A stretch of DNA of 64,000 bases from Planctomycetota bacterium (GTDB lineage: Bacteria > Planctomycetota > UBA8108 > SXIK01): positions 9,024,001-9,088,000 of the forward strand of contig OZ244999.1 of NCBI GenBank assembly GCA_965223265.1, given 5' to 3'. The translations under genes and the position numbers were made by a program. The notes below the pieces were generated by a model. It was not told the origin of the DNA and did not search any database. It saw only the letters and a list, made by a program, of their open reading frames with translations. Below are positions 25,203 to 37,317 of the stretch, piece by piece; position 1 is the stretch's first letter; each line of letters opens with the position of its first letter.

Positions 25203-26336
25203 GTGATCGGTCCGCCCCGCGGAGGCATCCTTTCGCTTGCTACTGGCGTCCCGCCTCACGCCGCGACGCAGGAAGAGATGCTGCGCTTTATGCAGCGGCT
25301 CTTTGCGCACAACCTATCAGCCACCGAGTCGCGGCGGTGGCAGCCACGGCTTAGGGCGCTCTACGGCCGAAGTGGCATCCAAAAGCGTCACAGCGTCCTG
25401 GCCGATTTTACTGCGGATGACCTAGCGGCGTGCGAATTGCAGCCGCACTTACTCCGCGGGTCCGGGAGTGCATCGACCGCAAAACGCATGGAGATTTACG
25501 AGCGCGAATGTGTCGGAATGGCTGCGCCTATCGCACGCAGGGCGATCGACAAGGCTTCGATTGATGCGGCTCAAATCACGCATCTCGTTTTTTGCAGTTG
25601 CACTGGATTCTATTCTCCCGGGCCTGATCTCGACCTGATCGAAGCGTTGGATCTGCGCCCGAGCGTCCAGCGGACAGTGGTTGGATTCATGGGGTGCCAT
25701 GGTGGCTTCAACTCGCTCCGCCTCTGCGATCAAGTGGTCGCGGCGCATCCCGACGCGAAAATCCTGCTGATCTGCGTTGAGCTGTGCACCCTTCACATGC
25801 AGCCCGAGCCGACGAAGTCGTCTGTGTTATCCAATTGTCTCTTTGCGGACGGGTGCGCCGCTCTCATCTACGGTAGACCGGCGGACCGCGATGCCCGAGC
25901 TGTGCTGGTGGCGAGCGCGTCTGCGGTGGCGCCCACTTCGAGGCAAGCCATGGCGTGGCACATTGGCGACGCCGGATTTCGGATGACGCTGAGCGCAGAG
26001 GTTCCAGAGCGTCTCATGGGGGAGTTAGCCGGGTTCAGCCACCATCTTCTCGACCTCGCGGCAGTGAACCGTGGGCAGCGTTGTCGGTGGGCGATTCATC
26101 CTGGCGGACCACGCATCCTGAAGGCTGCACGTCATGCTCTCGCTCTCGAGGCAGACGACATCGCAGCCTCCACAGGGGTGCTGCGCGATTACGGGAACAT
26201 GTCGAGCCCGACGATCTTTTTCGTCCTCGAGCGGCTGCTCGCAGAGGAGCGAGAGAATCGCACCACGAGTCCCGTGGTCATGCTGGGGTTTGGTCCCGGA
26301 CTGACGATCGAGGGCGTCGTTCTTAGCAGCCCTTGA
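25203..26336 (+). CDS. Type III polyketide synthase (chalcone synthase-like)
   Basis: Catalytic triad motifs GFMGC, WAIHPGG, YGNMSS; also CVELCTLH, LFADG, GFGPGLT. Confidence 0.95.
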   Translation: MIGPPRGGILSLATGVPPHAATQEEMLRFMQRLFAHNLSATESRRWQPRLRALYGRSGIQKRHSVLADFTADDLAACELQPHLLRGSGSASTAKRMEIYERECVGMAAPIARRAIDKASIDAAQITHLVFCSCTGFYSPGPDLDLIEALDLRPSVQRTVVGFMGCHGGFNSLRLCDQVVAAHPDAKILLICVELCTLHMQPEPTKSSVLSNCLFADGCAALIYGRPADRDARAVLVASASAVAPTSRQAMAWHIGDAGFRMTLSAEVPERLMGELAGFSHHLLDLAAVNRGQRCRWAIHPGGPRILKAARHALALEADDIAASTGVLRDYGNMSSPTIFFVLERLLAEERENRTTSPVVMLGFGPGLTIEGVVLSSP

Positions 26337-26401: not shown

Positions 26402-28060
26402 TTATAGCAGCGCGCCGATCGCCTTTGCGAGCAGCATCCCGATCGGTACGCCGGCGAGGAGAAGTCCGGCAACCCAAAGGCTCGCGAGCGTTGACCAGCG
26501 GTGTGGCAGCCCCTGCACGTGAATGCGCCGTTCCGTGCCGTAGAGCCAAGCCTTGAACCTCGGTGTGCGGCCACGCGGCCCCTTGATCTGGACGTCAACC
26601 GACACGACCGGCACCGATTCAATCTCGACGCTGGAGCGGAGTACCTTCACCTGGTCGCGGTCCGCCTCGAAAGGCGACGAATCGAAGTGAGCGCGTATCT
26701 TCTTTTCGAGGATCCCGGACGACACCTCTTGCGAGAATTCAGCTGCGCACTTCGCGCCGAGGCCAGGGTCGAACGCGTCTGTGTCGACGGCGGAACGAGT
26801 AACACTTTGCTTCTGCGTGCCGCCCGCAGCGTCAACGATTTCACGGAGAATCGTCGCTGCTGCGTCGGTGGCTCGCAGAGACGTCGGCGCATACGTCGTT
26901 GTGACGTTGTCGTCCGTCGTGCGCCCCGCTCGATTGGCACGGGGTACCGATACGGGTCGTTTCCAGAGGGCGGAGGCTGCTGCGGAGTCACCATCGACTT
27001 CCTCACGCTTCGCCCACAAAGACCGAATCGATATGCGAGTGAATGAATCATCGGAGATGCTGGTGAAGTGGATCGATTCGTCGTGGTGAATGGGAAAGAA
27101 AGGCATCCTTTTCGACAACTTTTGCAGGTGGCTGCGCAGCGCGAGTTCGTCTTTCTCGTCGAGGCGAGGTTTGCGGGCCTTGGCGGGAGACTTGGGCTGT
27201 TTGCGCTCAGGTGTCAATTTTTCGGTTCGGCTGCCCGGTCTTTTCGCCGCTTTCGACTCCTCTTCTGCGTCTTGCTGGCGTCGAGGACGGGCAAGCGGAG
27301 CATTGATCGTCAGGGACAGCTTTTTCGGCTGCGCGAGAGCCTCCAGCGGTAGGTCAGATTTTTTGATCCGGATGCTCCCAAGCATCATCTTGAGACCGAT
27401 TCCGCGCAGGGTCTCAGACTCGTCTTGCGACGACTCGGAAGAATCGTCATCGTCGTCTTCGCTTGCGTTCGGCTGAGGTGCCGTCGCGGGTTTGTCTTCA
27501 GACTTGCTCTCGGGGCGCGGCGAAGTCTGCAGTCCGCGACGTTCGATTTCGCCGAAGCTCTCTTTCATCATGCGTCGCGCTTGCGACACTTTTTCCTGTA
27601 GAACGGAGATGCGTGTTACCGATTGTCCCATCGATTTACGACATTCGCCGTTCTTCACCTTGCCGAGGAAGACTCGAGCTGCGGTCACCTTGTACAACGG
27701 CTCGAGGACCTCGCCAGTGTCGTTAAGCAGGGCTTGAGCACCTGTGAGCTCGGCAAGCGTGGCGCATCCGATGTCGGACTGTTGCGCAACTTCTTCGAGA
27801 AGCGCATTTCGCTTCGCAGGATCGCCTAGGTCCTGTCGTAGTTGGCGAACGGATTTGAGGCTGGCACTCATCCGTTCTGAGAGCTCTTGAAGAAGTGTCA
27901 CAAGTTCTTCGAGCGCATCGCGCAATTCGCCTTCGTCGACAGGCGAATCTTTCAGCGCTCTCATTTGCCCGAGAACCCACGCGACCAGCTCCGCGATGTA
28001 CTGGTCGTTACGCTCGGAAGTTTCTACTGGGGGCGATTCAGCGATCGTTTCCGTCGTCAT
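26402..28060 (-). CDS. Hypothetical protein (helical N-terminus, acidic linker, C-terminal TM)
   Basis: 552-aa ORF with ATGA overlap to the upstream gene; C-terminal hydrophobic helix. Confidence 0.65.
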   Translation of the reverse strand: MTTETIAESPPVETSERNDQYIAELVAWVLGQMRALKDSPVDEGELRDALEELVTLLQELSERMSASLKSVRQLRQDLGDPAKRNALLEEVAQQSDIGCATLAELTGAQALLNDTGEVLEPLYKVTAARVFLGKVKNGECRKSMGQSVTRISVLQEKVSQARRMMKESFGEIERRGLQTSPRPESKSEDKPATAPQPNASEDDDDDSSESSQDESETLRGIGLKMMLGSIRIKKSDLPLEALAQPKKLSLTINAPLARPRRQQDAEEESKAAKRPGSRTEKLTPERKQPKSPAKARKPRLDEKDELALRSHLQKLSKRMPFFPIHHDESIHFTSISDDSFTRISIRSLWAKREEVDGDSAAASALWKRPVSVPRANRAGRTTDDNVTTTYAPTSLRATDAAATILREIVDAAGGTQKQSVTRSAVDTDAFDPGLGAKCAAEFSQEVSSGILEKKIRAHFDSSPFEADRDQVKVLRSSVEIESVPVVSVDVQIKGPRGRTPRFKAWLYGTERRIHVQGLPHRWSTLASLWVAGLLLAGVPIGMLLAKAIGALL

Positions 28061-30504
28061 GGCATTCGATCCAATTCTTTCCCTGTCCCTGGCGAGCGCA
28101 ACACGAGTTCGATTCCCTGGTGTTGATCGACTCGTTTGACTTGTGAGCTGGTCGTCGTCTCCCTGGGACTATGGTTGAATGCGCCCGGCGAGAACAGCAG
28201 CCCGAGAGTGATTCCGAACAACAGCCCACAGGCGCCGTACCATCTGAAGTCGAGAAGACCGCGCTTCCTCGTCAGGGCGGCTAATACGATGGCTCCGCAG
28301 ATCGATCCGATCGCAGCGATCGCCACGGTCGCGACGTAGACGCCGCGCCCACTGTGCTGGCTGTGACTCGCTTTCGCAGCCGCCGCGCCCGTAGCCGGAT
28401 CTGGCCCGCCCCGGCCGGGACGATGCGCAGCGACCCGGTCGCCGGCGACGATGCGTGCGGCCTCCCAATCCGAATCTGAGACGACGTCCGAAAACGCTGC
28501 CGGCCGCGGCGATTCTTGTGTTATTTGACCGTCGAGCATTGAATCCACAGCTGCGGCGATCTGGGGCTGCTGACTGACGTGTCGGACGACGATCGGTCGA
28601 ATGCTACCGACGGCCTCGGGGTGAGCCCGGAGATAGAGGACGGCGTGCCGCGTCGCATCGCCGTCAGACGTTCGAACCAGTTCGCGCACCAGTCTTTGGT
28701 GAGACTCCGCGAATCCCGTCGGCGCCTTCTCCGCAGGGCATTCCCGCAGGTAAGTGTCGATACATTCCTTGAGTAGAGGCCAGTTCTTGGCGTTCGCGGC
28801 GTCGCCCGCGAGTTTCCAAAGCCGCGCTACGGCGCGAGGCTTGAGCTCGTCTGGCTCCTCGCGGCTCAGAATTGCGGTCTCGCGTGCGATTTTGAACGCT
28901 TCGCTCGGCCCGGAAACATCGTCGAGGCGCGTCAGCCACGACTCCTGCGTCTGTTCGAAGAGCGTTTGGCAGCGTTCGGTGCCGGCGGTGGTCCGCATCT
29001 TGCGCACGGTGTCTCGGATCAGCTCCTGAACTCGCCGACCGCCGTGGCGTTCGAATGCCGTCGACAACTCGCCGATGTCTTGCAAAAGAACCTGATAGAG
29101 ACACCTGTCGAGATTCTCCATAGCCTGCCGGTCATGCGGAAAGGCAACCAGCATGCGTTCGCATTCCTGGGTCGCGGCGCGAGCGTCGCGCGGGAGTAGG
29201 TGGGCGACGAACCGCGCGTAGTAGCGGTGGAGTTTCTTTGCTACGAGCTGTTCCTCGTGGTTGTTCGATGTCAGTCTCTGGGCTTGCCCCAGCACGTCCT
29301 TTGCGGCAGCGAATTCTGCCTGCCGCAGGAGACCCTCGGCGCCTCGCAGCGCCGAGTTGACGAGGGTCTTGCGAAACGCTTCGATGCTGGACTCCTTGGC
29401 GCCGTGAGATCGCAGGTTCGTCGCCCTGCGGAACTCCTCGAGTGCCTTCTCATAGCGGTGCGCGGAAACGTGGCGAGCGCCGATGCGATCGGCGGAGAGC
29501 TTGATCAGAGCGTCCGCTTGCTGGTCCAGATAACGATCCTTATCGCGCGCCGCAACAGCAAGTGATAGCGACTCTTTGGGGTCGGCGGTGGCTCGGGCTC
29601 GCGCCAGCATGACGGCTGCGTCGGCGCGTCTGAGTTCGCGTTCCCACCGCTCGCGCCCTGGGAGTTTTTCGGCTCGTTCGCGGATTTCTCGGAGCCGCCG
29701 CTCCATCGCTTCGACGACGGACATGCTCGGAGCGCTGCGAATGCTGTCGAGAGCTGTCTCGTGAGCGGCTCCTGGCGAACTGGGCTTGGCCTCGTCCGTC
29801 GCATCCATGATCAACGCGAACACGGCGAGGGCGTTGTCATGACGACCACGTTCGCGATCGGAATCCACCCACTTCTGCCAGGCTCCCTCGTAAAGGCGCG
29901 TCTGCCGGCTGAACTGGGTTCGATCCAGCTTCCGCAGGCTGAGCAAGTGAAACACTGACGCAGCGCCGTGAATCTCAGTCTCACGGGCGATCGCTTCAGT
30001 GTGTACAGCGATCAGATGTTTGTCGATCGCTTGGGCGACGCCGGAGGCGTTCGTGGCGAAGTCGAGATACTCTTTCGTCTCCTGATCCTCGGAGCTCGCG
30101 GCTTTCGCCGCGAGAGACTCGAGGATGCTGTTGATTTGAGCGCTCTCGGTCTGCAGCTTCTCGCCGAGCGTCTCACCGCGGCGCCAGGCGTCTTCGAACT
30201 GTTCCCGGTCGACGGCCTTCCAGCCATCGATTTCTTCGGTGAGAAGGGCATGCTCACGCAGACTCCGCTGGAATCGCCCGAGCGCGTTCTGCAGCGCGAT
30301 CCGGTCCGCGTCGGTGATCTGAAGGCGCTCGGAATCACTGCCCAGCTCGGCGAGTCGGCGCGACGCCGCGTGGAGCTTCTTCGAAAACTCTCGGGTTACC
30401 TCCGAGCCGCTGCGCTGGGGTGGGTCGCTCGATTTGCAGCGGCACAAGACCAAAGTCAGCGCCGTCAGGACACAGCTCAGCAGCAGTTGATCTCTACGTG
30501 TCAT
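28057..30504 (-). CDS. Hypothetical exported/lipoprotein with TPR-like helices and two C-terminal TMs
   Basis: 815-aa ORF; signal-like N-terminus ending in Cys; Ala/Glu/Arg-rich helices; hydrophobic C-terminal pair. Confidence 0.65.
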   Translation of the reverse strand: MTRRDQLLLSCVLTALTLVLCRCKSSDPPQRSGSEVTREFSKKLHAASRRLAELGSDSERLQITDADRIALQNALGRFQRSLREHALLTEEIDGWKAVDREQFEDAWRRGETLGEKLQTESAQINSILESLAAKAASSEDQETKEYLDFATNASGVAQAIDKHLIAVHTEAIARETEIHGAASVFHLLSLRKLDRTQFSRQTRLYEGAWQKWVDSDRERGRHDNALAVFALIMDATDEAKPSSPGAAHETALDSIRSAPSMSVVEAMERRLREIRERAEKLPGRERWERELRRADAAVMLARARATADPKESLSLAVAARDKDRYLDQQADALIKLSADRIGARHVSAHRYEKALEEFRRATNLRSHGAKESSIEAFRKTLVNSALRGAEGLLRQAEFAAAKDVLGQAQRLTSNNHEEQLVAKKLHRYYARFVAHLLPRDARAATQECERMLVAFPHDRQAMENLDRCLYQVLLQDIGELSTAFERHGGRRVQELIRDTVRKMRTTAGTERCQTLFEQTQESWLTRLDDVSGPSEAFKIARETAILSREEPDELKPRAVARLWKLAGDAANAKNWPLLKECIDTYLRECPAEKAPTGFAESHQRLVRELVRTSDGDATRHAVLYLRAHPEAVGSIRPIVVRHVSQQPQIAAAVDSMLDGQITQESPRPAAFSDVVSDSDWEAARIVAGDRVAAHRPGRGGPDPATGAAAAKASHSQHSGRGVYVATVAIAAIGSICGAIVLAALTRKRGLLDFRWYGACGLLFGITLGLLFSPGAFNHSPRETTTSSQVKRVDQHQGIELVLRSPGTGKELDRMP

Positions 30505-30818
30505 GCCTAACTTTCGCCCTTAAAATCCTTTCAGGGTCTTGGAAGAAGCCGCCGCTGACGACTGTTTCCCCCTGATCTGGGAAAGCGGTGGGAGTTGTCA
30601 AAGAGTCGCATCTCCTGCGCCGGAGAGGCAAACCGAGGCGGTTGTGAGCCGATTCTTATCGGCCATTCGGCCCTTCGGAGGTACTTTTCGAATTCCAGAC
30701 GGCGTCCAATTCCCGTACACTGTTGGGGTGGAGCGCAGCGGGTAACGGAAGCTGCGCCAGGCGGCCGTCGCCACCACGACGACCAATTCCCTTGCCGAAG
30801 AGCAGAGAGCTTAGACTG

Positions 30819-32195
30819 ATGCTTACAATCGTTGGCGATCCGAGCCGAGAGCGTTTTTGCGATGGCATGAGCCGGCGCAGCTTCCTGCGTTTGGGTGGTC
30901 TGTCCGTTGGCGGTTTATCGCTCGCCGACCTCTTGCGTGCTGAGTCAACACCAGCGTCGCGACCGAAGACCGAGGCCAAGCGGGGGCGTCAGAAGTCGAT
31001 CATCATGATCTTCCTCCCGGGTGGCCCGCCGCATCAGGACATGTTCGACCTGAAAATGGACGCGCCGTCGGAGATCCGCGGCGAGTTCAAGCCGATCAAG
31101 ACGAACGTTCCGGGCATCGAGATCTGCGAGCTCTTCCCGCGCATGGCTGCGATGATGGACCGACTTGCGATCATCCGATCGATCGTTGGCGCACGCGGTT
31201 CTCATTATGCTTTTCAGTGCATGACGGGGCGCTCCGGTCGCGCGCCGGAGCCGCAGCCGCAAGGCGGCTGGCCGGCTCTCGGTTCCGTGCTTTCGAAGCT
31301 CGAAGGGCCTGCGCATCCTGCAATGCCGCCTTACGTCGGCCTGGCACCGCATGACATGGGGCATAGGCCGTGGGCAGATCCGGGCCGTCCGGGTTTCCTT
31401 GGCCCCGCTCACGCGCCGTTCCTGCCATCGGGAGCAGGGCGAGGCGACATGGTGCTCAACGGGGTTTCTGCGGATCGACTTTCAGATCGCAAGACGCTTC
31501 TGGCCAGCTTCGATCGATTTCGCCGGCACGCAGATGCCAGTGGGCTCATGGACGGGATGGATTCGTTTCAGCAGCAGGCGTTCGGGATTTTGACATCGAG
31601 CCGCCTGGCGGAGGCGATGGATCTCGAACGCGAAGAATCTCGAGTACGTGATCGGTACGGGCGCGGCTCCGCCAAAAAGCAGGCGGACGGTGCGCCGAAA
31701 TTGTTGGATCACTTCTTGGTGGCGAGGCGGCTCGTCGAGGCTGGGGTGCGATGTGTCACCCTGGCGTTCAGCCGTTGGGACTGGCACGGCGGCAACTTCC
31801 ACCGTGCTCGGCAGGACTTTCCGATGCTCGACCAAGGGGTCACCGCATTGGTCGAAGACCTGCAGCAACGCGGTCTTGACCGCGACGTGTCGGTCGTCGT
31901 CTGGGGTGAGTTCGGGCGCACGCCAAAGATCAATGAGCGCGCGGGGCGCGATCACTGGCCGCGCGTCTCGTGCGCGCTGATGTACGGCGGCGGAATCCGC
32001 GGTGGGCAAGTGATCGGCGCGACCGATCGTTGGGCAGCGGAGGCGACCGAGCGGCCGGTACACTTCCAAGAAGTGCTGGCGACGCTTTATCACAACGTCG
32101 GCATCGACGTCAATTCGACGACGGTTCCGGACCTCTCCGGGCGGCCTCAGTATCTCGTCGACGAGGCGAGGCAGCCGTTGCCGGAGCTCGTCTGA
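30819..32195 (+). CDS. DUF1501 domain-containing protein
   Basis: [58 protein letters not shown]. Confidence 0.93.
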
Positions 32196-33252: not shown

Positions 33253-33667
33253 GGGGCGAGTCGACCTGAGTGTGGAGCCGTCCGGAACGATCGTGATTGG
33301 CTCCTCACTATAGAAGCTAACTCAGTTCCTGCAAAGAGGTTGCTCGTCCGTCGAGTCCGCCTGCAGTCGGCGACTGTGCCCGAGACCTCTACCGTGCACG
33401 AAGATGGTGGGCACGATTCGGGCTGGAGCGCCGTTTTTTCTTCAGATTCTTCTCGACGACGAGTTACTCTATTTGCTCGGAGCGTCTCCGCTCTGTCGAC
33501 TCTCGGCGGCGGTTGGCGCCGGATGTATGGGGCCCATACATCCAACAACGAGGTCTCTGGTTAGCTACGTACCCTTCATCTCGATACCAAGTTATCGAAC
33601 GGCGCTCTCACGGATTGACACCGCTCGAGTTCGCCGCTCTCGACTCTCTTTTTCCGAGGAGGTTCAC

Positions 33668-36600
33668 ATGCGTTGGATTCCTTTGAGCGCTGTCGCTATT
33701 GCTTGTTTTCTAGCGGCACCACTTGCCGCTGGAGAATCGTGCTGCGCGAAGCTCGCACAGGCGCAGAAGAGTGTTGACGCTCTTTTGGCCAAGTGGCAGC
33801 AAGCCGTGGGCTCTCTCGACGCGGACCAGCAGCGAAGCGCTGCCAGCGAGTTCGCGGAGGTAGCGAAGTCTTGCCCGATCGGTTCCCGAGTCCGGCGGAG
33901 TGTTTTCATTGCGCACGATGCATTGGCCGCGGCTGCTAAAGCAGACGAGGAGTGCAGGGCCGCTTGCGCCAAGAAAGAAAAAGGTGAGGTGTGCGCGAAG
34001 TTGGCTGCTGCTGCCAAGGCGCGCTCGCAGCTGATCGGCTCGCTGAAGACGCTGGCGGCGCACGCTGCGTCGGGGCTTGGTCAGAACGAATCATTGGCAG
34101 CCGTCGCCAAGGGTGATGCCGCGTGTGCGAAGAGCAAAGCGGTAGCAGGGAAGGGCTTCTGCGCCAAGAGCGCCGAGAAGCTTGCCACAGCGATTCGCGG
34201 CGAGTCTTGCCAGAAGAAGGGTGCGAAGCTTCTGTTGTCGGAGGTTGAAGGACTGAGCTGTGCGAAGAGCGCCGAGAAGCTCGTTGCTGCGGTTCAGGCT
34301 GCAGGCTGCGCAAAGTCGGGCGGGAAGCTAATCAAGGCGAAGGTCGATGAGCTTGCTGGCGTGAAGGCTTGCGCGAAGAAGAGCGAGGCCTGCGCCAAGA
34401 GCAAAGCTGTAGCTGCGAAGGGTTTCTGCGCCAAGAGCGCGGAGAAGCTTGCGGCGGCGATCCGCGGCGAAGCCTGTCAGAAGAAGGGAGCGAAGCTCCT
34501 TCTCTCTGAGGTTGAGGGTTTGAGCTGCGCGAAGAGTGCCGAGAAGCTTGTCGCTGCGGTTCAGGCTGCAGGCTGCGCAAAGTCGGGCGGGAAGCTAATC
34601 AAGGCGAAGGTCGATGAGCTTGCTGGCGTGAAGGCTTGCGCGAAGAAGAGCGAGGCCTGCGCCAAGAGCAAAGCTGTAGCTGCGAAGGGTTTCTGCGCCA
34701 AGAGCGCGGAGAAGCTTGCGGCGGCGATCCGCGGCGAAGCCTGTCAGAAGAAGGGAGCGAAGCTCCTTCTCTCTGAGGTTGAGGGTTTGAGCTGCGCGAA
34801 GAGTGCCGAGAAGCTTGTCGCTGCGGTGAAGTCAGCAGGCTGCGAGAAGTCAGCTGGGAAGCTGATCAAGGCGAAGGTCGATGAGCTTGCTGGCGTGAAG
34901 GCTTGCGCGAAGAAGAGCGAGGCCTGCGCCAAGAGCAAGGCTGTAGCTGCGAAGGGCTTCTGTGCCAAGAGCGCCGAGAAGCTTGCCACAGCGATTCGCG
35001 GCGAGTCTTGCCAGAAGAAGGGCGCGAAGCTTCTGTTGTCGGAGGTTGAAGGACTGAGCTGCGCGAAGAGCGCCGAGAAGCTCGTTGCTGCGGTGAAGTC
35101 AGCAGGCTGCGAGAAGTCAGCCGGGAAGCTGATCAAGGCGAAGGTCGATGAGCTTGCTGGCGTGAAGGCTTGCGCGAAGAAGAGCGAAGCCTGCGCCAAG
35201 AGCAAAGCTGTAGCTGCGAAGGGTTTCTGCGCCAAGAGCGCGGAGAAGCTTGCGGTGGCGATCCGCGGCGAAGCCTGTCAGAAGAAGGGAGCGAAGCTCC
35301 TTCTCTCTGAGGTTGAGGGCTTGAACTGCGCGAAGAGTGCCGAGACGCTTGTCGCCGCGGTGAAATCAGCAGGCTGCGCGAAGTCAGCCGGGAAGTTGAT
35401 CACGGCGAAGGTCGATGAGCTTGCCTGTGTGAAAGCCTGCGCGAAGAAGAGCGAAGCCTGCGCCAAGAGCAAGGCTGTAGCTGCGAAGGGTTTCTGCGCC
35501 AAGAGCGCCGAGAAGCTTGCGGCGGCGATCCGCGGCGAAGCCTGTCAGAAGAAGGGAGCGAAGCTCCTTCTCTCTGAGGTTGAGGGCTTGAGCTGCGCGA
35601 AGAGCGCCGAGAAGCTCGTTGCTGCGGTGAAATCGGCAGGCTGCGAGAAGTCAGCCGGGAAGCTGATCAAGGCGAAGGTTGATGAGCTTGCCGGCGTGAA
35701 GGCTTGCGCGAAGAAGAGCGAAGCCTGCGCCAAGAGCAAGGCTGTAGCTGCGAAGGGTTTCTGCGCCAAGAGCGCCGAGAAGCTTGCGGCGGCGATCCGC
35801 GGCGAAGCCTGTCAGAAGAAGGGAGCGAAGCTTCTTCTCTCTGAGGTTGAAGGACTGAGCTGCGCGAAGAGTGCCGAGAATCTTGTCGCTGCGGTGAAGT
35901 CAGCAGGCTGCGAGAAGTCAGCCGGGAAGCTGATCAAGGCGAAGGTCGATGAGCTTGCCTGTGTGAAAGCCTGCGCGAAGAAGAGCGAAGCCTGCGCCAA
36001 GAGCAAGGCTGTAGCTGCGAAGGGTTTCTGCGCCAAGAGCGCCGAGAAGCTTGCGGCGGCGATCCGCGGCGAAGCCTGTCAGAAGAAGGGAGCGAAGCTC
36101 CTTCTCTCTGAGGTTGAGGGCTTGAGCTGCGCGAAGAGCGCCGAGAAGCTCGTTGCTGCGGTGAAATCGGCAGGCTGCGAGAAGTCAGCCGGGAAGCTGA
36201 TCAAGGCGAAGGTTGATGAGCTTGCCGGCGTGAAGGCTTGCGCGAAGAAGAGCGAAGCCTGCGCCAAGAGCAAGGCTGTAGCTGCGAAGGGTTTCTGCGC
36301 CAAGAGCGCCGAGAAGCTTGCGGCGGCGATCCGCGGCGAAGCCTGTCAGAAGAAGGGAGCGAAGCTTCTTCTCTCTGAGGTTGAAGGACTGAGCTGCGCG
36401 AAGAGTGCCGAGAATCTTGTCGCTGCGGTGAAGTCAGCAGGCTGCGAGAAGTCAGCCGGGAAGCTGATCAAGGCGAAGGTCGATGAGCTTGCCTGTGTGA
36501 AAGCCTGCGCGAAGAAGAGCGAAGCCTGCGCCAAGAGCAAGGCTGTAGCTGCGAAGGGTTTCTGCGCCAAGAGCGCCGAGAAGCTTGCGGCGGCGATCCG

Positions 36601-37186
36601 CGGCGAAGCCTGTCAGAAGAAGGGAGCGAAGCTCCTTCTCTCTGAGGTTGAGGGCTTGAGCTGCGCGAAGAGCGCCGAGAAGCTCGTTGCTGCGGTGAAA
36701 TCGGCAGGCTGCGAGAAGTCAGCCGGGAAGCTGATCAAGGCGAAGGTCGATGAGCTTGCTGGCGTGAAGGCTTGCGCGAAGAAGCAAGGAAAGTCCGCCT
36801 GCGCCAAGTCGGTTGCCGCTCGCGCGCGTTCTCTCCTGGCTGAACTCGACGGCGCTCCCGCCGAGTTTGCAGCGCTCTCTGAAGCGAAGCGCGGCGAGAT
36901 CTACGCTGGTGTTCACCGCGTCATGGGAAGCAATGCGGCCGCAGCTCTCGTGCCCGAGACGATCATGACCCTTGCGCATGGCTTGGAAGCCCTGACGGCT
37001 GCCGATCAAGCCATGCTGAAGGCGCTCGAGACTCAGGAAGCGATCCGCAAGATGGTGACGCCCGAGATGGAGAGCAAGTTCCGCACCAATGCCGAGGCTC
37101 TCCGCGAGACCAGCGCGCTTCTGCAGAAGGCAGTCGCTGTGATCGAAAGATCGAAAGAGTCTGCCGAGAAGCGAGCTGACGATTGA
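33668..37186 (+). CDS. Secreted Cys/Lys/Ala-rich tandem-repeat protein (10 x 89 aa)
   Basis: GAGGAGG RBS, ATG 33668, signal peptide MRWIPLSAVAIACFLAAPLAA; uninterrupted frame through ten 267-bp units; many unit differences are synonymous; followed by a terminator. Confidence 0.85.
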   Translation: MRWIPLSAVAIACFLAAPLAAGESCCAKLAQAQKSVDALLAKWQQAVGSLDADQQRSAASEFAEVAKSCPIGSRVRRSVFIAHDALAAAAKADEECRAACAKKEKGEVCAKLAAAAKARSQLIGSLKTLAAHAASGLGQNESLAAVAKGDAACAKSKAVAGKGFCAKSAEKLATAIRGESCQKKGAKLLLSEVEGLSCAKSAEKLVAAVQAAGCAKSGGKLIKAKVDELAGVKACAKKSEACAKSKAVAAKGFCAKSAEKLAAAIRGEACQKKGAKLLLSEVEGLSCAKSAEKLVAAVQAAGCAKSGGKLIKAKVDELAGVKACAKKSEACAKSKAVAAKGFCAKSAEKLAAAIRGEACQKKGAKLLLSEVEGLSCAKSAEKLVAAVKSAGCEKSAGKLIKAKVDELAGVKACAKKSEACAKSKAVAAKGFCAKSAEKLATAIRGESCQKKGAKLLLSEVEGLSCAKSAEKLVAAVKSAGCEKSAGKLIKAKVDELAGVKACAKKSEACAKSKAVAAKGFCAKSAEKLAVAIRGEACQKKGAKLLLSEVEGLNCAKSAETLVAAVKSAGCAKSAGKLITAKVDELACVKACAKKSEACAKSKAVAAKGFCAKSAEKLAAAIRGEACQKKGAKLLLSEVEGLSCAKSAEKLVAAVKSAGCEKSAGKLIKAKVDELAGVKACAKKSEACAKSKAVAAKGFCAKSAEKLAAAIRGEACQKKGAKLLLSEVEGLSCAKSAENLVAAVKSAGCEKSAGKLIKAKVDELACVKACAKKSEACAKSKAVAAKGFCAKSAEKLAAAIRGEACQKKGAKLLLSEVEGLSCAKSAEKLVAAVKSAGCEKSAGKLIKAKVDELAGVKACAKKSEACAKSKAVAAKGFCAKSAEKLAAAIRGEACQKKGAKLLLSEVEGLSCAKSAENLVAAVKSAGCEKSAGKLIKAKVDELACVKACAKKSEACAKSKAVAAKGFCAKSAEKLAAAIRGEACQKKGAKLLLSEVEGLSCAKSAEKLVAAVKSAGCEKSAGKLIKAKVDELAGVKACAKKQGKSACAKSVAARARSLLAELDGAPAEFAALSEAKRGEIYAGVHRVMGSNAAAALVPETIMTLAHGLEALTAADQAMLKALETQEAIRKMVTPEMESKFRTNAEALRETSALLQKAVAVIERSKESAEKRADD
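34121..36790 (+). repeat. Intragenic tandem array, 10 x 267 bp
   Basis: GGYTTCTGYGCCAAG (GFCAK) recurs every 267 bp from ~34153 to ~36556. Confidence 0.95.
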
Positions 37187-37210: not shown

Positions 37211-37249
37211 AACGGGCGCGAGTCGTTTCACGGCTCGCGCCCGTTTTTT
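37211..37249 (+). terminator. Rho-independent terminator
   Basis: AACGGGCGCGAGTCG / CGGCTCGCGCCCGTT stem, 5-nt loop, T-tract. Confidence 0.85.
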
Positions 37250-37317
37250 CGTTTGGTGGGGGACACTCCATCACTAAGATGCGCGGCGATCGGGCACGCA
37301 TCGAGCAAGGAGCTAGA

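Follow-up and report, generated by a model that had tools for sequence, protein, structure and literature searches.

Several described groups of proteins share traits with the protein considered here: the YTV proteins of Planctomycetota, the copper storage proteins Csp1, Csp3, and Ccsp, the metallothioneins, the DNA-binding (HhH)2/ComEA domains (helix-hairpin-helix, HhH), and the saposin-like, circular-bacteriocin, and acyl-carrier-protein folds. The gene in question lies in a 64,000-nucleotide (nt) stretch from a Planctomycetota bacterium (the window; GenBank assembly GCA_965223265.1, contig OZ244999.1, positions 9,024,001 to 9,088,000 of the forward strand) and carries an array of ten closely similar units of 89 amino acids (aa). 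Sequence analyses indicate that the gene is real, is under selection, and encodes a predicted Sec-exported protein of an undescribed family that is confined, in the genomes searched, to one order of Planctomycetota.

YTV proteins, as described in one account, resemble the window protein in being exported, Cys-rich, repetitive, lineage-restricted, and from the same phylum (PMC8567305), but the window unit is helical and rich in Lys and Ala. The protein was not assigned to this group because neither it (Pfam scan, E ≤ 1) nor any other part of its genome matches the YTV family (PF07639). As a positive control, the same family model hit 25 genomes in a sample of 401 from the phylum; none of the nine sampled from the window's order had a match.

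Csp1, Csp3, and Ccsp are likewise Cys-containing helical bundles, and Csp1 is exported. The bundle formed by the N- and C-terminal parts of a modeled one-unit homologue (P0077) aligns with Ccsp (6q6b; Z 7.9, root-mean-square deviation [rmsd] 3.1, 117 aligned residues) and with Csp3 (6zif; Z 7.8, rmsd 2.5, 105 aligned), but these structures ranked 32–35 among many unrelated bundles, with Z values in the range that the tool treats as generic for helical bundles. Cys residues of Csp proteins lie along the helix core, whereas those of the window family are at helix N-caps and in loops, and the signal of the window protein is Sec-like rather than Tat. A Cys-lined core was not found: core Cys precede the helices, as judged from sequence and DSSP, and there is no Pfam or PDB sequence match.

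Metallothioneins, like the window array, combine Cys with Lys, Ser, Ala, and Gly and have almost no His or aromatic residues. They are cytosolic, consist of ∼15–30% Cys, and have no regular secondary structure without metal, whereas the window array has 7.1% Cys and is predicted to be folded, helical, and exported. Cys clusters of the metallothionein kind are also scarce in the corresponding region of 72 family members (CxC in two and CxxC in four), and the protein was not classed with metallothioneins. The (HhH)2 proteins and ComEA, which is extracytoplasmic, share with the window unit a short helix followed by a turn and another helix, a G-h-x-x-K-x-A-x-x-h pattern, and a duplicated ∼33-aa hairpin, but Cys in the window unit replaces the hairpin Gly. 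Finally, the best fold matches to the unit in VIA-align include small four-helix folds of the saposin-like, circular-bacteriocin, and acyl-carrier-protein kinds. The highest scores are those of the crown region of an alkaline phosphatase (3a52) and a circular bacteriocin (2mp8; rmsd 2.4, 56 aligned, 25% identity), both with Z 5.3, followed by carrier proteins (Z 4.0–4.7) and saposin-like 3s64 (Z 3.9), and all are below the level that the tool considers meaningful. There is no sequence relation to any of these folds, the window unit is highly charged and not membrane-active in character, and the six-Cys pattern of saposins is unlike that of the unit.

The unit array and its split scaffold

A preliminary description, made from the nucleotide sequence of the window, had proposed ten 89-aa units with six Cys each, or seven in some, and both Tandem Repeats Finder (TRF) and a table of the translated units bear this out. 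TRF reports a repeat at 34130–36784 with a period of 267, 9.9 copies, 92% matches, 0 indels, and a score of 4400. At the protein level, ten units start exactly 89 aa apart, and the array yields ten matches to unit profile A5 (E 2e-26 to 4e-24). Each unit is made up of a ∼66-aa module of four helices with four Cys and a ∼23-aa linker of Cys and Lys. Seven units have six Cys, and units 5, 7, and 9 have seven following a Gly-to-Cys change; within units, Cys residues are 7–21 residues apart. The four core Cys are spaced at 16, 17, and 16 aa and, as had been described, head the segments CAKSAEKL, CQKKGAKL, CAKSAEKL, and CEKSAGKL. Composition of the whole protein is dominated by Ala (24.7%) and Lys (16.6%), with 6.1% Cys and a net charge of +102; the array is 19.7% Lys, and the mature protein has 70 Cys. 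The Lys-richness and lack of CxxCH haem motifs reported earlier were both recovered; the protein has only four His, none after CxxC, and does not have the haem-binding trait of c-type cytochromes.

Differences between units are mostly synonymous, indicating that the protein frame is under purifying selection (12 synonymous vs. 0 nonsynonymous codon changes between units 3 and 6; 25 vs. 7 between units 1 and 3). Because units 6–7 and 8–9 are identical in nucleotides, the 534-nt duplication can only be very recent. Such an exact duplication is in line with a selfish or neutral expansion of a repeat in a poorly expressed or nonexpressed gene that has no function of its own. We regard this explanation as very improbable, given the strong synonymous bias between units, a frame that is intact over 3.5 kb, four Cys that are invariant over 29 units from many genomes, a syntenic six-unit orthologue in another genus, and a strong ribosome-binding site and terminator. 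Short antisense open reading frames (ORFs) over the array are by-products of the repeat. Nucleotide skews over 34001–37000 are GC +0.18 to +0.24 and AT +0.12 to +0.18, with flanks at ∼0.05; the skew of the array reflects a codon bias for Lys, Ala, and Glu (AAG, GCG, and GAG). Contigs assembled from short reads of four public runs end at the edges of the array (34283 and 36755) and none bridges it, so the copy number of ten rests on the single-contig 9.18-Mb assembly. Read depth of unit fragments is above that of the flanks, which is not a measure of copy number.

The array is inserted between the halves of a scaffold. Paralog P0002 (324 aa, same genome) has 35% identity to the N-terminal 150 aa (E 2e-11) and 32% identity to the C-terminal 120 aa (E 1e-10) of the window protein in BLASTP searches, and carries only ∼40 Cys-rich residues at the place of the array. 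Profile A1, made from P0002 and ten relatives and searched against 1.84 billion representative proteins, matched 129 proteins at E ≤ 0.001, 106 at ≤1e-10, and 74 at ≤1e-30. Members are mostly ∼300 aa in length, with the longest at 554 aa, and the sole source name seen on any relative is "MAG: hypothetical protein [Planctomycetes bacterium]." The profile also matches both ends of the window gene (E 3e-15 and 7e-12), with the array between them, which places the protein in this unnamed family; the match to the N-terminal half spans genome positions 9057671–9058225. Columns of the N- and C-terminal halves, each of ∼120 aa, in alignment A4 (72 sequences) are homologous to each other (hhalign probability 97.5%, E 8e-12, 110 columns), and the scaffold is thus an internal duplication.

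Across the 72 family members, the insert between the scaffold halves is hypervariable and enriched in Cys to about three times the level in the rest of the protein (medians of 9.1% and 2.8%; median insert length 35.5 aa). CC is present in 38 and CxxxC in 24 of these inserts, and His, Met, and aromatic residues are almost absent. In P0060, a metagenomic protein of 396 aa, the helical module is replaced by a metallothionein-like insert of 128 aa with closely spaced CxC, CC, and CxxC motifs and a total of 21 Cys. Four distant relatives (P0114, P0129, P0131, and P0133) have GGCC..K.TAALASAE repeats between scaffold halves that are apparently swapped, with matches to the N-terminal half of the profile near their C-termini; a circular permutation of the family is possible. 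A shared tail, ..KKTETAS[T/N][K/N/S], ends P0008, P0010, P0017, P0026, P0039, and the G002 protein, and could be a sorting or recognition tag. The window protein ends in ..EKRADD.

That the family could not be recognized at first sight is consistent with the outcome of the searches. Pfam, NCBIfam, and PDB-sequence searches gave no meaningful match for the protein, its N- and C-terminal parts, two units, 34 unit rows, or the 72 family members. Subthreshold or summed low-complexity matches to UPF0150, zf-MIZ, FecI, PolX, and IspD (7kmw) were judged to be artefacts of composition. ESM Atlas had no usable match for one unit or for paralog P0002, Foldseek against the PDB had none at E ≤ 0.001 for either AlphaFold model, and VIA-align gave no meaningful match. 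A search for homologues of near-equal length with the whole protein as query found nothing among 8000 scored candidates, and a related-locus search with P0001 found no relative in the genome contig collection; relatives came from profile searches of genomes. A literature search for four unit motifs found no papers.

Structure predictions address how scaffold and units are arranged. In the AlphaFold model of P0077 (380 aa, 72-row alignment; mean predicted local distance difference test [pLDDT] 83.9, predicted template modeling score [pTM] 0.72), each half has four long helices, in agreement with the helical N- and C-domains of the preliminary description, and a small four-helix module is located between the halves. 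Linkers at 147–158 and 227–245 are below pLDDT 50. VIA-align superposed residues 73..368 of the model (∼140 aligned, module skipped) on individual four-helix bundles, the highest Z being 10.5; such values are uninformative on function because the tool treats scores in this range as generic for helical bundles. In the model, the N and C halves seem to form a single bundle, and the insert exits and re-enters it at one end.

Two window units were modeled from alignment A2, which has 14 rows and was used for folding, whereas alignment A5, with 29 clean units, was used for profiles. The two-unit model has a pLDDT of 61.3 and a pTM of 0.37, with unit cores at ∼70–80 and linker residues 79–101 below 50. 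In both models, each of the four helices of the module begins right after a Cys with Lys at +2 (C-x-K): Cys 161, 177, 194, and 210 of P0077 precede helices from 162, 178, 195, and 211, and Cys 13, 29, 46, and 62 of the two-unit model precede helices from 14, 30, 47, and 63. All 29 units in A5 have these four core Cys, and A17, R25, A34, L44, and A66 are nearly invariant; an exception outside A5 is the second unit of P0011, which has Ser at C1. Helices 1 and 3 resemble each other, as do helices 2 and 4, implying that the module is a duplicated ∼33-aa hairpin, and TRF detected a weak 96-nt period in the array of a relative (G001).

Because the linkers are below pLDDT 50 and the pTM is low, no packing between units is predicted, and the model is more suggestive of a beads-on-a-string arrangement than of a solenoid. 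The two-unit model is weak evidence given its shallow alignment; the disordered linkers of P0077 point the same way. A helical solenoid with aligned Cys, as first proposed for this protein, is therefore unsupported, and separate four-helix modules are predicted in its place.

Distribution and copy number of the module

A search for homologues of variable unit number had been proposed when the gene was first described, and a hidden Markov model of the window unit found such relatives, with 0, 1, 2, 3, 6, or 10 modules. The module is absent in most family members and is single in about two dozen proteins. Proteins P0011, P0017, P0058, and P0078 have two modules each. Three are found in a G011 protein of 283 aa, which has nothing but a signal peptide and modules, and in a G014 protein of 568 aa; G001 has six and the window gene ten. 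Copy numbers in G005, G006, and G007 are lower bounds because the matches are at contig ends of draft genomes. The G014 protein (contig C517, L012/L021, minus strand) has a signal peptide and short Lys- and Cys-rich repeats (KACDKTVAAKK..CCADKAKTVV) interleaved with its three modules, is 9.9% Cys and 22% Lys, and is without N or C scaffold halves. To judge by its sequence, the four-Cys module evidently also works outside of the split bundle.

Within the window's order, 21 genomes were searched with the unit profile, and 10 of them, from 9 of 11 genera, had a match. Among the 401 genomes of the phylum, seven had matches, six of them in the same order. The sole match outside of the order (G380, E ∼1e-5) was rejected because it is a different repeat with one Cys, joined to a CxxCH-containing domain. 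Among the genomes searched, sequence matches to the module are convincing only in this order of Planctomycetota.

In G001, which is of a different genus in the same family, a positional orthologue is present and the order of DUF1501, pyrD, the gene, ispG, and an aminotransferase gene is kept. Its array has six 94-aa units, and TRF reports 5.8 copies of a 282-nt unit with 99% identity. Units are far more alike within a genome (92% in the window and 99% in G001) than between the two genomes (∼46–50% aa identity), and the arrays were thus expanded or homogenized separately in each lineage.

Function of the cysteines

Among the readings weighed here, the one we place first, tentatively and at less than an even chance, is that the protein is a thiolate array that captures soft metals. 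In the models, modules joined by low-order linkers of Cys and Lys resemble beads, independent of each other, along a strongly cationic chain. The protein would act through its thiols: in the periplasm or envelope, ∼40 thiolates at helix N-caps and ∼23 Cys of the linkers would catch thiophilic ligands, of which soft metal ions (Cu(I), Zn, Cd, and Hg) are the likeliest. Module copy number, which is readily changed in a lineage (0 to 10), would determine how much is bound. A Cys at the N-terminus of a helix with a neighboring Lys is a setting for a thiolate of low pKa. An up-down bundle would place C1/C3 and C2/C4 at opposite ends of the module; with this geometry, each module would have two sites of two Cys, serving as linear metal sites or, when oxidized, as disulfide staples. 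A more specific proposal is possible but doubtful, namely that the module is a new extracytoplasmic thiolate-binding domain in which two-Cys sites of the Cys-x-Lys type hold soft metals or another thiophilic anion, with a capacity that scales with copy number (0 to 10) in the loop of a conserved split bundle. As such, it would be a folded, exported, and modular counterpart of metallothioneins, present in one order of Planctomycetota only.

The inventory of the genome and counts of Cys are consistent with thiolates. The invariant core Cys, the Cys-rich inserts of the family, and the metallothionein-like run of P0060 also speak for this reading, and a weak hint comes from the TetR gene that precedes the repeat-less paralog, which is probably inducible. 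DsbB, VKOR, and Thioredoxin_4 had no match in the single-contig genome of the window (G000), which was searched with positive controls, and the DSBA family had one match only. Of 69 family proteins, only 35 have an even number of Cys in the mature chain, which counts against a reading in which all Cys are in disulfides, as does the odd number in units 5, 7, and 9. Parity was assessed by a crude cleavage rule in 73 proteins, of which four were dropped (three without a recognizable signal peptide and one not starting with Met).

Several points weigh against the capture of metals by thiolates. The array lacks His and Met, the usual ligands of periplasmic copper, its Cys content is far below that of metallothioneins, and the charge of modules is not conserved across the family. 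Neither the window gene nor its orthologue in G001 has flanking genes for metal resistance, copper, mercury, or zinc. A one-unit homologue in G009 adjoins an Nramp-Usp transporter and a DtxR-type repressor, a weak hint for metals that comes from one locus only. The crude rule for signal peptides weakens the parity test, and the compartment met by exported proteins is oxidizing. In addition, the genome encodes a MauE homologue (G000:C1:8817901–8818308, 96.6 bits), and MauE is proposed in a 2026 bioRxiv preprint as a pathway that forms disulfides in species without DsbB and VKOR (10.64898/2026.03.05.709764). Judging from its gene content, the organism may rely on a MauE-type route to disulfides.

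If disulfides prevail, the protein could be a structural component of the envelope or periplasm, in which disulfides staple each helical bead and the string of beads forms a spacer, tether, or matrix component; Cys of the linkers may form cross-links to other molecules. Its length would be tuned by copy number and its cationic surface would hold it on anionic polymers of the envelope. We consider this to be a possible alternative, though one that we doubt, and rank it just below the capture of metals; both were among the functions suggested in the preliminary description (a metal sink and cross-linking of the envelope), and they are the two leading candidates. Consistent with it are the export signal predicted from sequence, the invariant Cys at the helix ends of the models, where pairs could meet, the even total of Cys in the mature protein together with the MauE homologue, and the housekeeping neighbors and own terminator of the gene. 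Copy number also changes quickly and in each lineage independently, as is common in repeat proteins of the surface. Cys-rich YTV proteins are described in cell-wall preparations of planctomycetes in the account cited above (PMC8567305). However, the family shows no bias toward even numbers of Cys, three units have an odd seventh Cys, and DsbB and VKOR were not found in the genome. Moreover, most members lack the module and have just a Cys-rich loop of ∼35 aa, which does not readily fit the role of a spacer. In the model, the chain begins and ends in the same bundle, so a closed loop is predicted rather than a linear tether.

The charge of the protein raises another alternative, a binder of polyanions such as DNA, polyphosphate, or acidic polysaccharide, in which diverged HhH-like modules bind through Lys and the Cys only stabilize the fold. 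The net charge and Lys content of the array agree with this, as does the motif G-F/L-C-x-K-x-A-x-x-L, which resembles the HhH hairpin G-h-G-x-K-x-A-x-x-h; the weak summed NCBIfam match to PolX would fit as well, were it not for its composition. Mean core charges of modules are highest, at +6 to +9, in arrays of three or more units and are 0 to +5 in most proteins with one or two. This pattern is a trend and not a test because the proteins are related, and since modules are close to neutral in most proteins with one or two of them, a basic charge does not characterize the family. Furthermore, sequence similarity to HhH families was not recovered. A six-frame search with PF12836 (HHH_3) had five matches in the genome, none in 9057668–9061183; Pfam scans of the protein and of the 34 unit rows found no HhH family; and alignment of A5 to A6, an HhH alignment from relatives, had an hhalign probability of 1.8%. 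The 50 best VIA-align matches listed for the two-unit model (best Z 5.3), a model of middling confidence (pLDDT 61.3), include no HhH protein. Membership in the HhH family was rejected by sequence, and we hold polyanion binding to be improbable.

The same thiols that would capture metals under the reading we favor could instead be consumed or loaded. In this alternative, which we also rate as improbable, the protein is a periplasmic buffer of redox state or electrophiles, or else carries anionic sulfur or chalcogen species, with thiolates reacting with persulfide, polysulfide, or oxidants. Cys at the N-terminus of helices with Lys at +2 is an arrangement that lowers the pKa of thiols and favors anions. 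Regulation may also be informative: a repeat-less paralog is directly downstream of a TetR gene (TetR_C_13/LmrA-YxaF-like) in three of three genomes (G000, G005, and G007) and, because of this conserved position, is probably locally inducible, suggesting that the family may be stress-inducible. However, no genes for sulfur metabolism, peroxidases, or reductases are adjacent, and no search found similarity to rhodanese, TusA, Sud, or peroxiredoxin. The weights given to these readings do not exhaust the possibilities, and the remainder belongs to something not yet thought of.

Coordinates, neighboring genes, and significance

The preliminary description had called a gene with a ribosome-binding site, a signal peptide, and its own terminator, all of which were seen again (table 1). 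The ORF on the plus strand extends over 33404..37186, and its listing and translation give 1172 aa from the inner ATG at 33668. This start is favored over the upstream ATG at 33404 because six homologues likewise begin with MRW. By eye, the N-terminus MRWIPLSAVAIACFLAAPLAAG/ESCC has the look of a Sec signal, and neither a twin-arginine motif nor a lipobox is present in MRWIPLSAVAIACFLAAPLAAG. A similar pattern (a charged start, a hydrophobic run, small residues, and E/D with Cys) is found in 69 of 73 family proteins by a crude rule. The promoter scan at the gene found no sigma-70-like promoter on the plus strand. Of the terminator-like element, the hairpin proper is at 37211–37245 and has 16 pairs (11 G-C) and a 3-nt loop, followed by the T-run.

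Table 1. Features of the window gene and loci of repeat-less paralogs (window positions unless a genome or locus is named)
Feature	Position	Strand	Basis or remark
Gene including stop codon	33668..37186	+	ORF listing and translation
Ribosome-binding site GAGGAGG	33656..33662	+	5 nt before ATG 33668; sequence inspection
Signal-peptide-like N-terminus MRWIPLSAVAIACFLAAPLAAG, aa 1-22	33668..33733	+	Translation; cleavage site inferred
N-terminal scaffold half, aa 23-152, helical, CPIGSR motif	33734..34123	+	P0002 similarity, profile A1, homologue model
Array of ten 89-aa units, aa 153-1042	34124..36793	+	TRF, unit table, profile A5, AlphaFold two-unit model
Exact 534-nt tandem duplication, units 6-7 = units 8-9	35459..36526	+	0 nucleotide differences (6 vs. 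8, 7 vs. 9)
C-terminal scaffold half, aa 1043-1172, and stop codon	36794..37186	+	P0002 similarity
Intrinsic-terminator-like hairpin and T-run	37211..37255	+	Promoter/terminator scan
Repeat-less paralog	G000:C1:5990217-5991176 (L022 9212-10210)	minus	TetR gene at L022 10459-11124
Paralog and TetR loci, other genomes	L020 7774-9588; L019 2739-4756		

The window gene stands alone between pyrD, which is on the opposite strand, and ispG; an aminotransferase gene and a DUF1501 gene are also among the flanking genes. The DUF1501 gene is at 30723–32192, two genes upstream beyond pyrD, and two such genes are in tandem beyond pyrD in G001. Expansion of DUF1501 is typical of Planctomycetota, and the 9.18-Mb genome of the window has 127 six-frame matches. 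Farther upstream are a type III polyketide synthase gene at 25203–26333 on the plus strand (chalcone/stilbene synthase N and C domains, E ∼1e-27) and, on the minus strand, adjacent ORFs of 552 aa (26405–28060) and 815 aa (28060–30504) without a Pfam match at E ≤ 1e-5. The longer of these ORFs starts like a signal peptide and has a hydrophobic segment at its C-terminal end. In G002 (L017 7807–9872), the gene with the units is adjacent to and divergent from genes for an agmatine deiminase (PAD_porph) and an N-carbamoylputrescine-amidase-type protein (CN_hydrolase), and in G012 (L018 3846–4859) a neighboring ORF resembles agmatine deiminase by its N-terminal sequence only. These genomes are from different families of the order, and the adjacency, a weak piece of context, may be residual synteny.

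With these analyses, an undescribed family with two homologous four-helix halves and a Cys-rich insert, as well as a new ∼66-aa domain with four invariant Cys at helix N-caps, are now defined and open to modeling and searches. If the Cys form disulfides, the family would represent a second, unrelated class of Cys-rich envelope proteins in a phylum whose envelope proteins are poorly understood, and in an order whose sampled genomes gave no YTV match. If the Cys bind metals, the array would be a new kind of folded, modular sequestration of soft metals outside of the cytoplasm, with a capacity set by repeat number, and would be of interest for the metal homeostasis of planctomycetes and as a compact four-Cys block for protein design.

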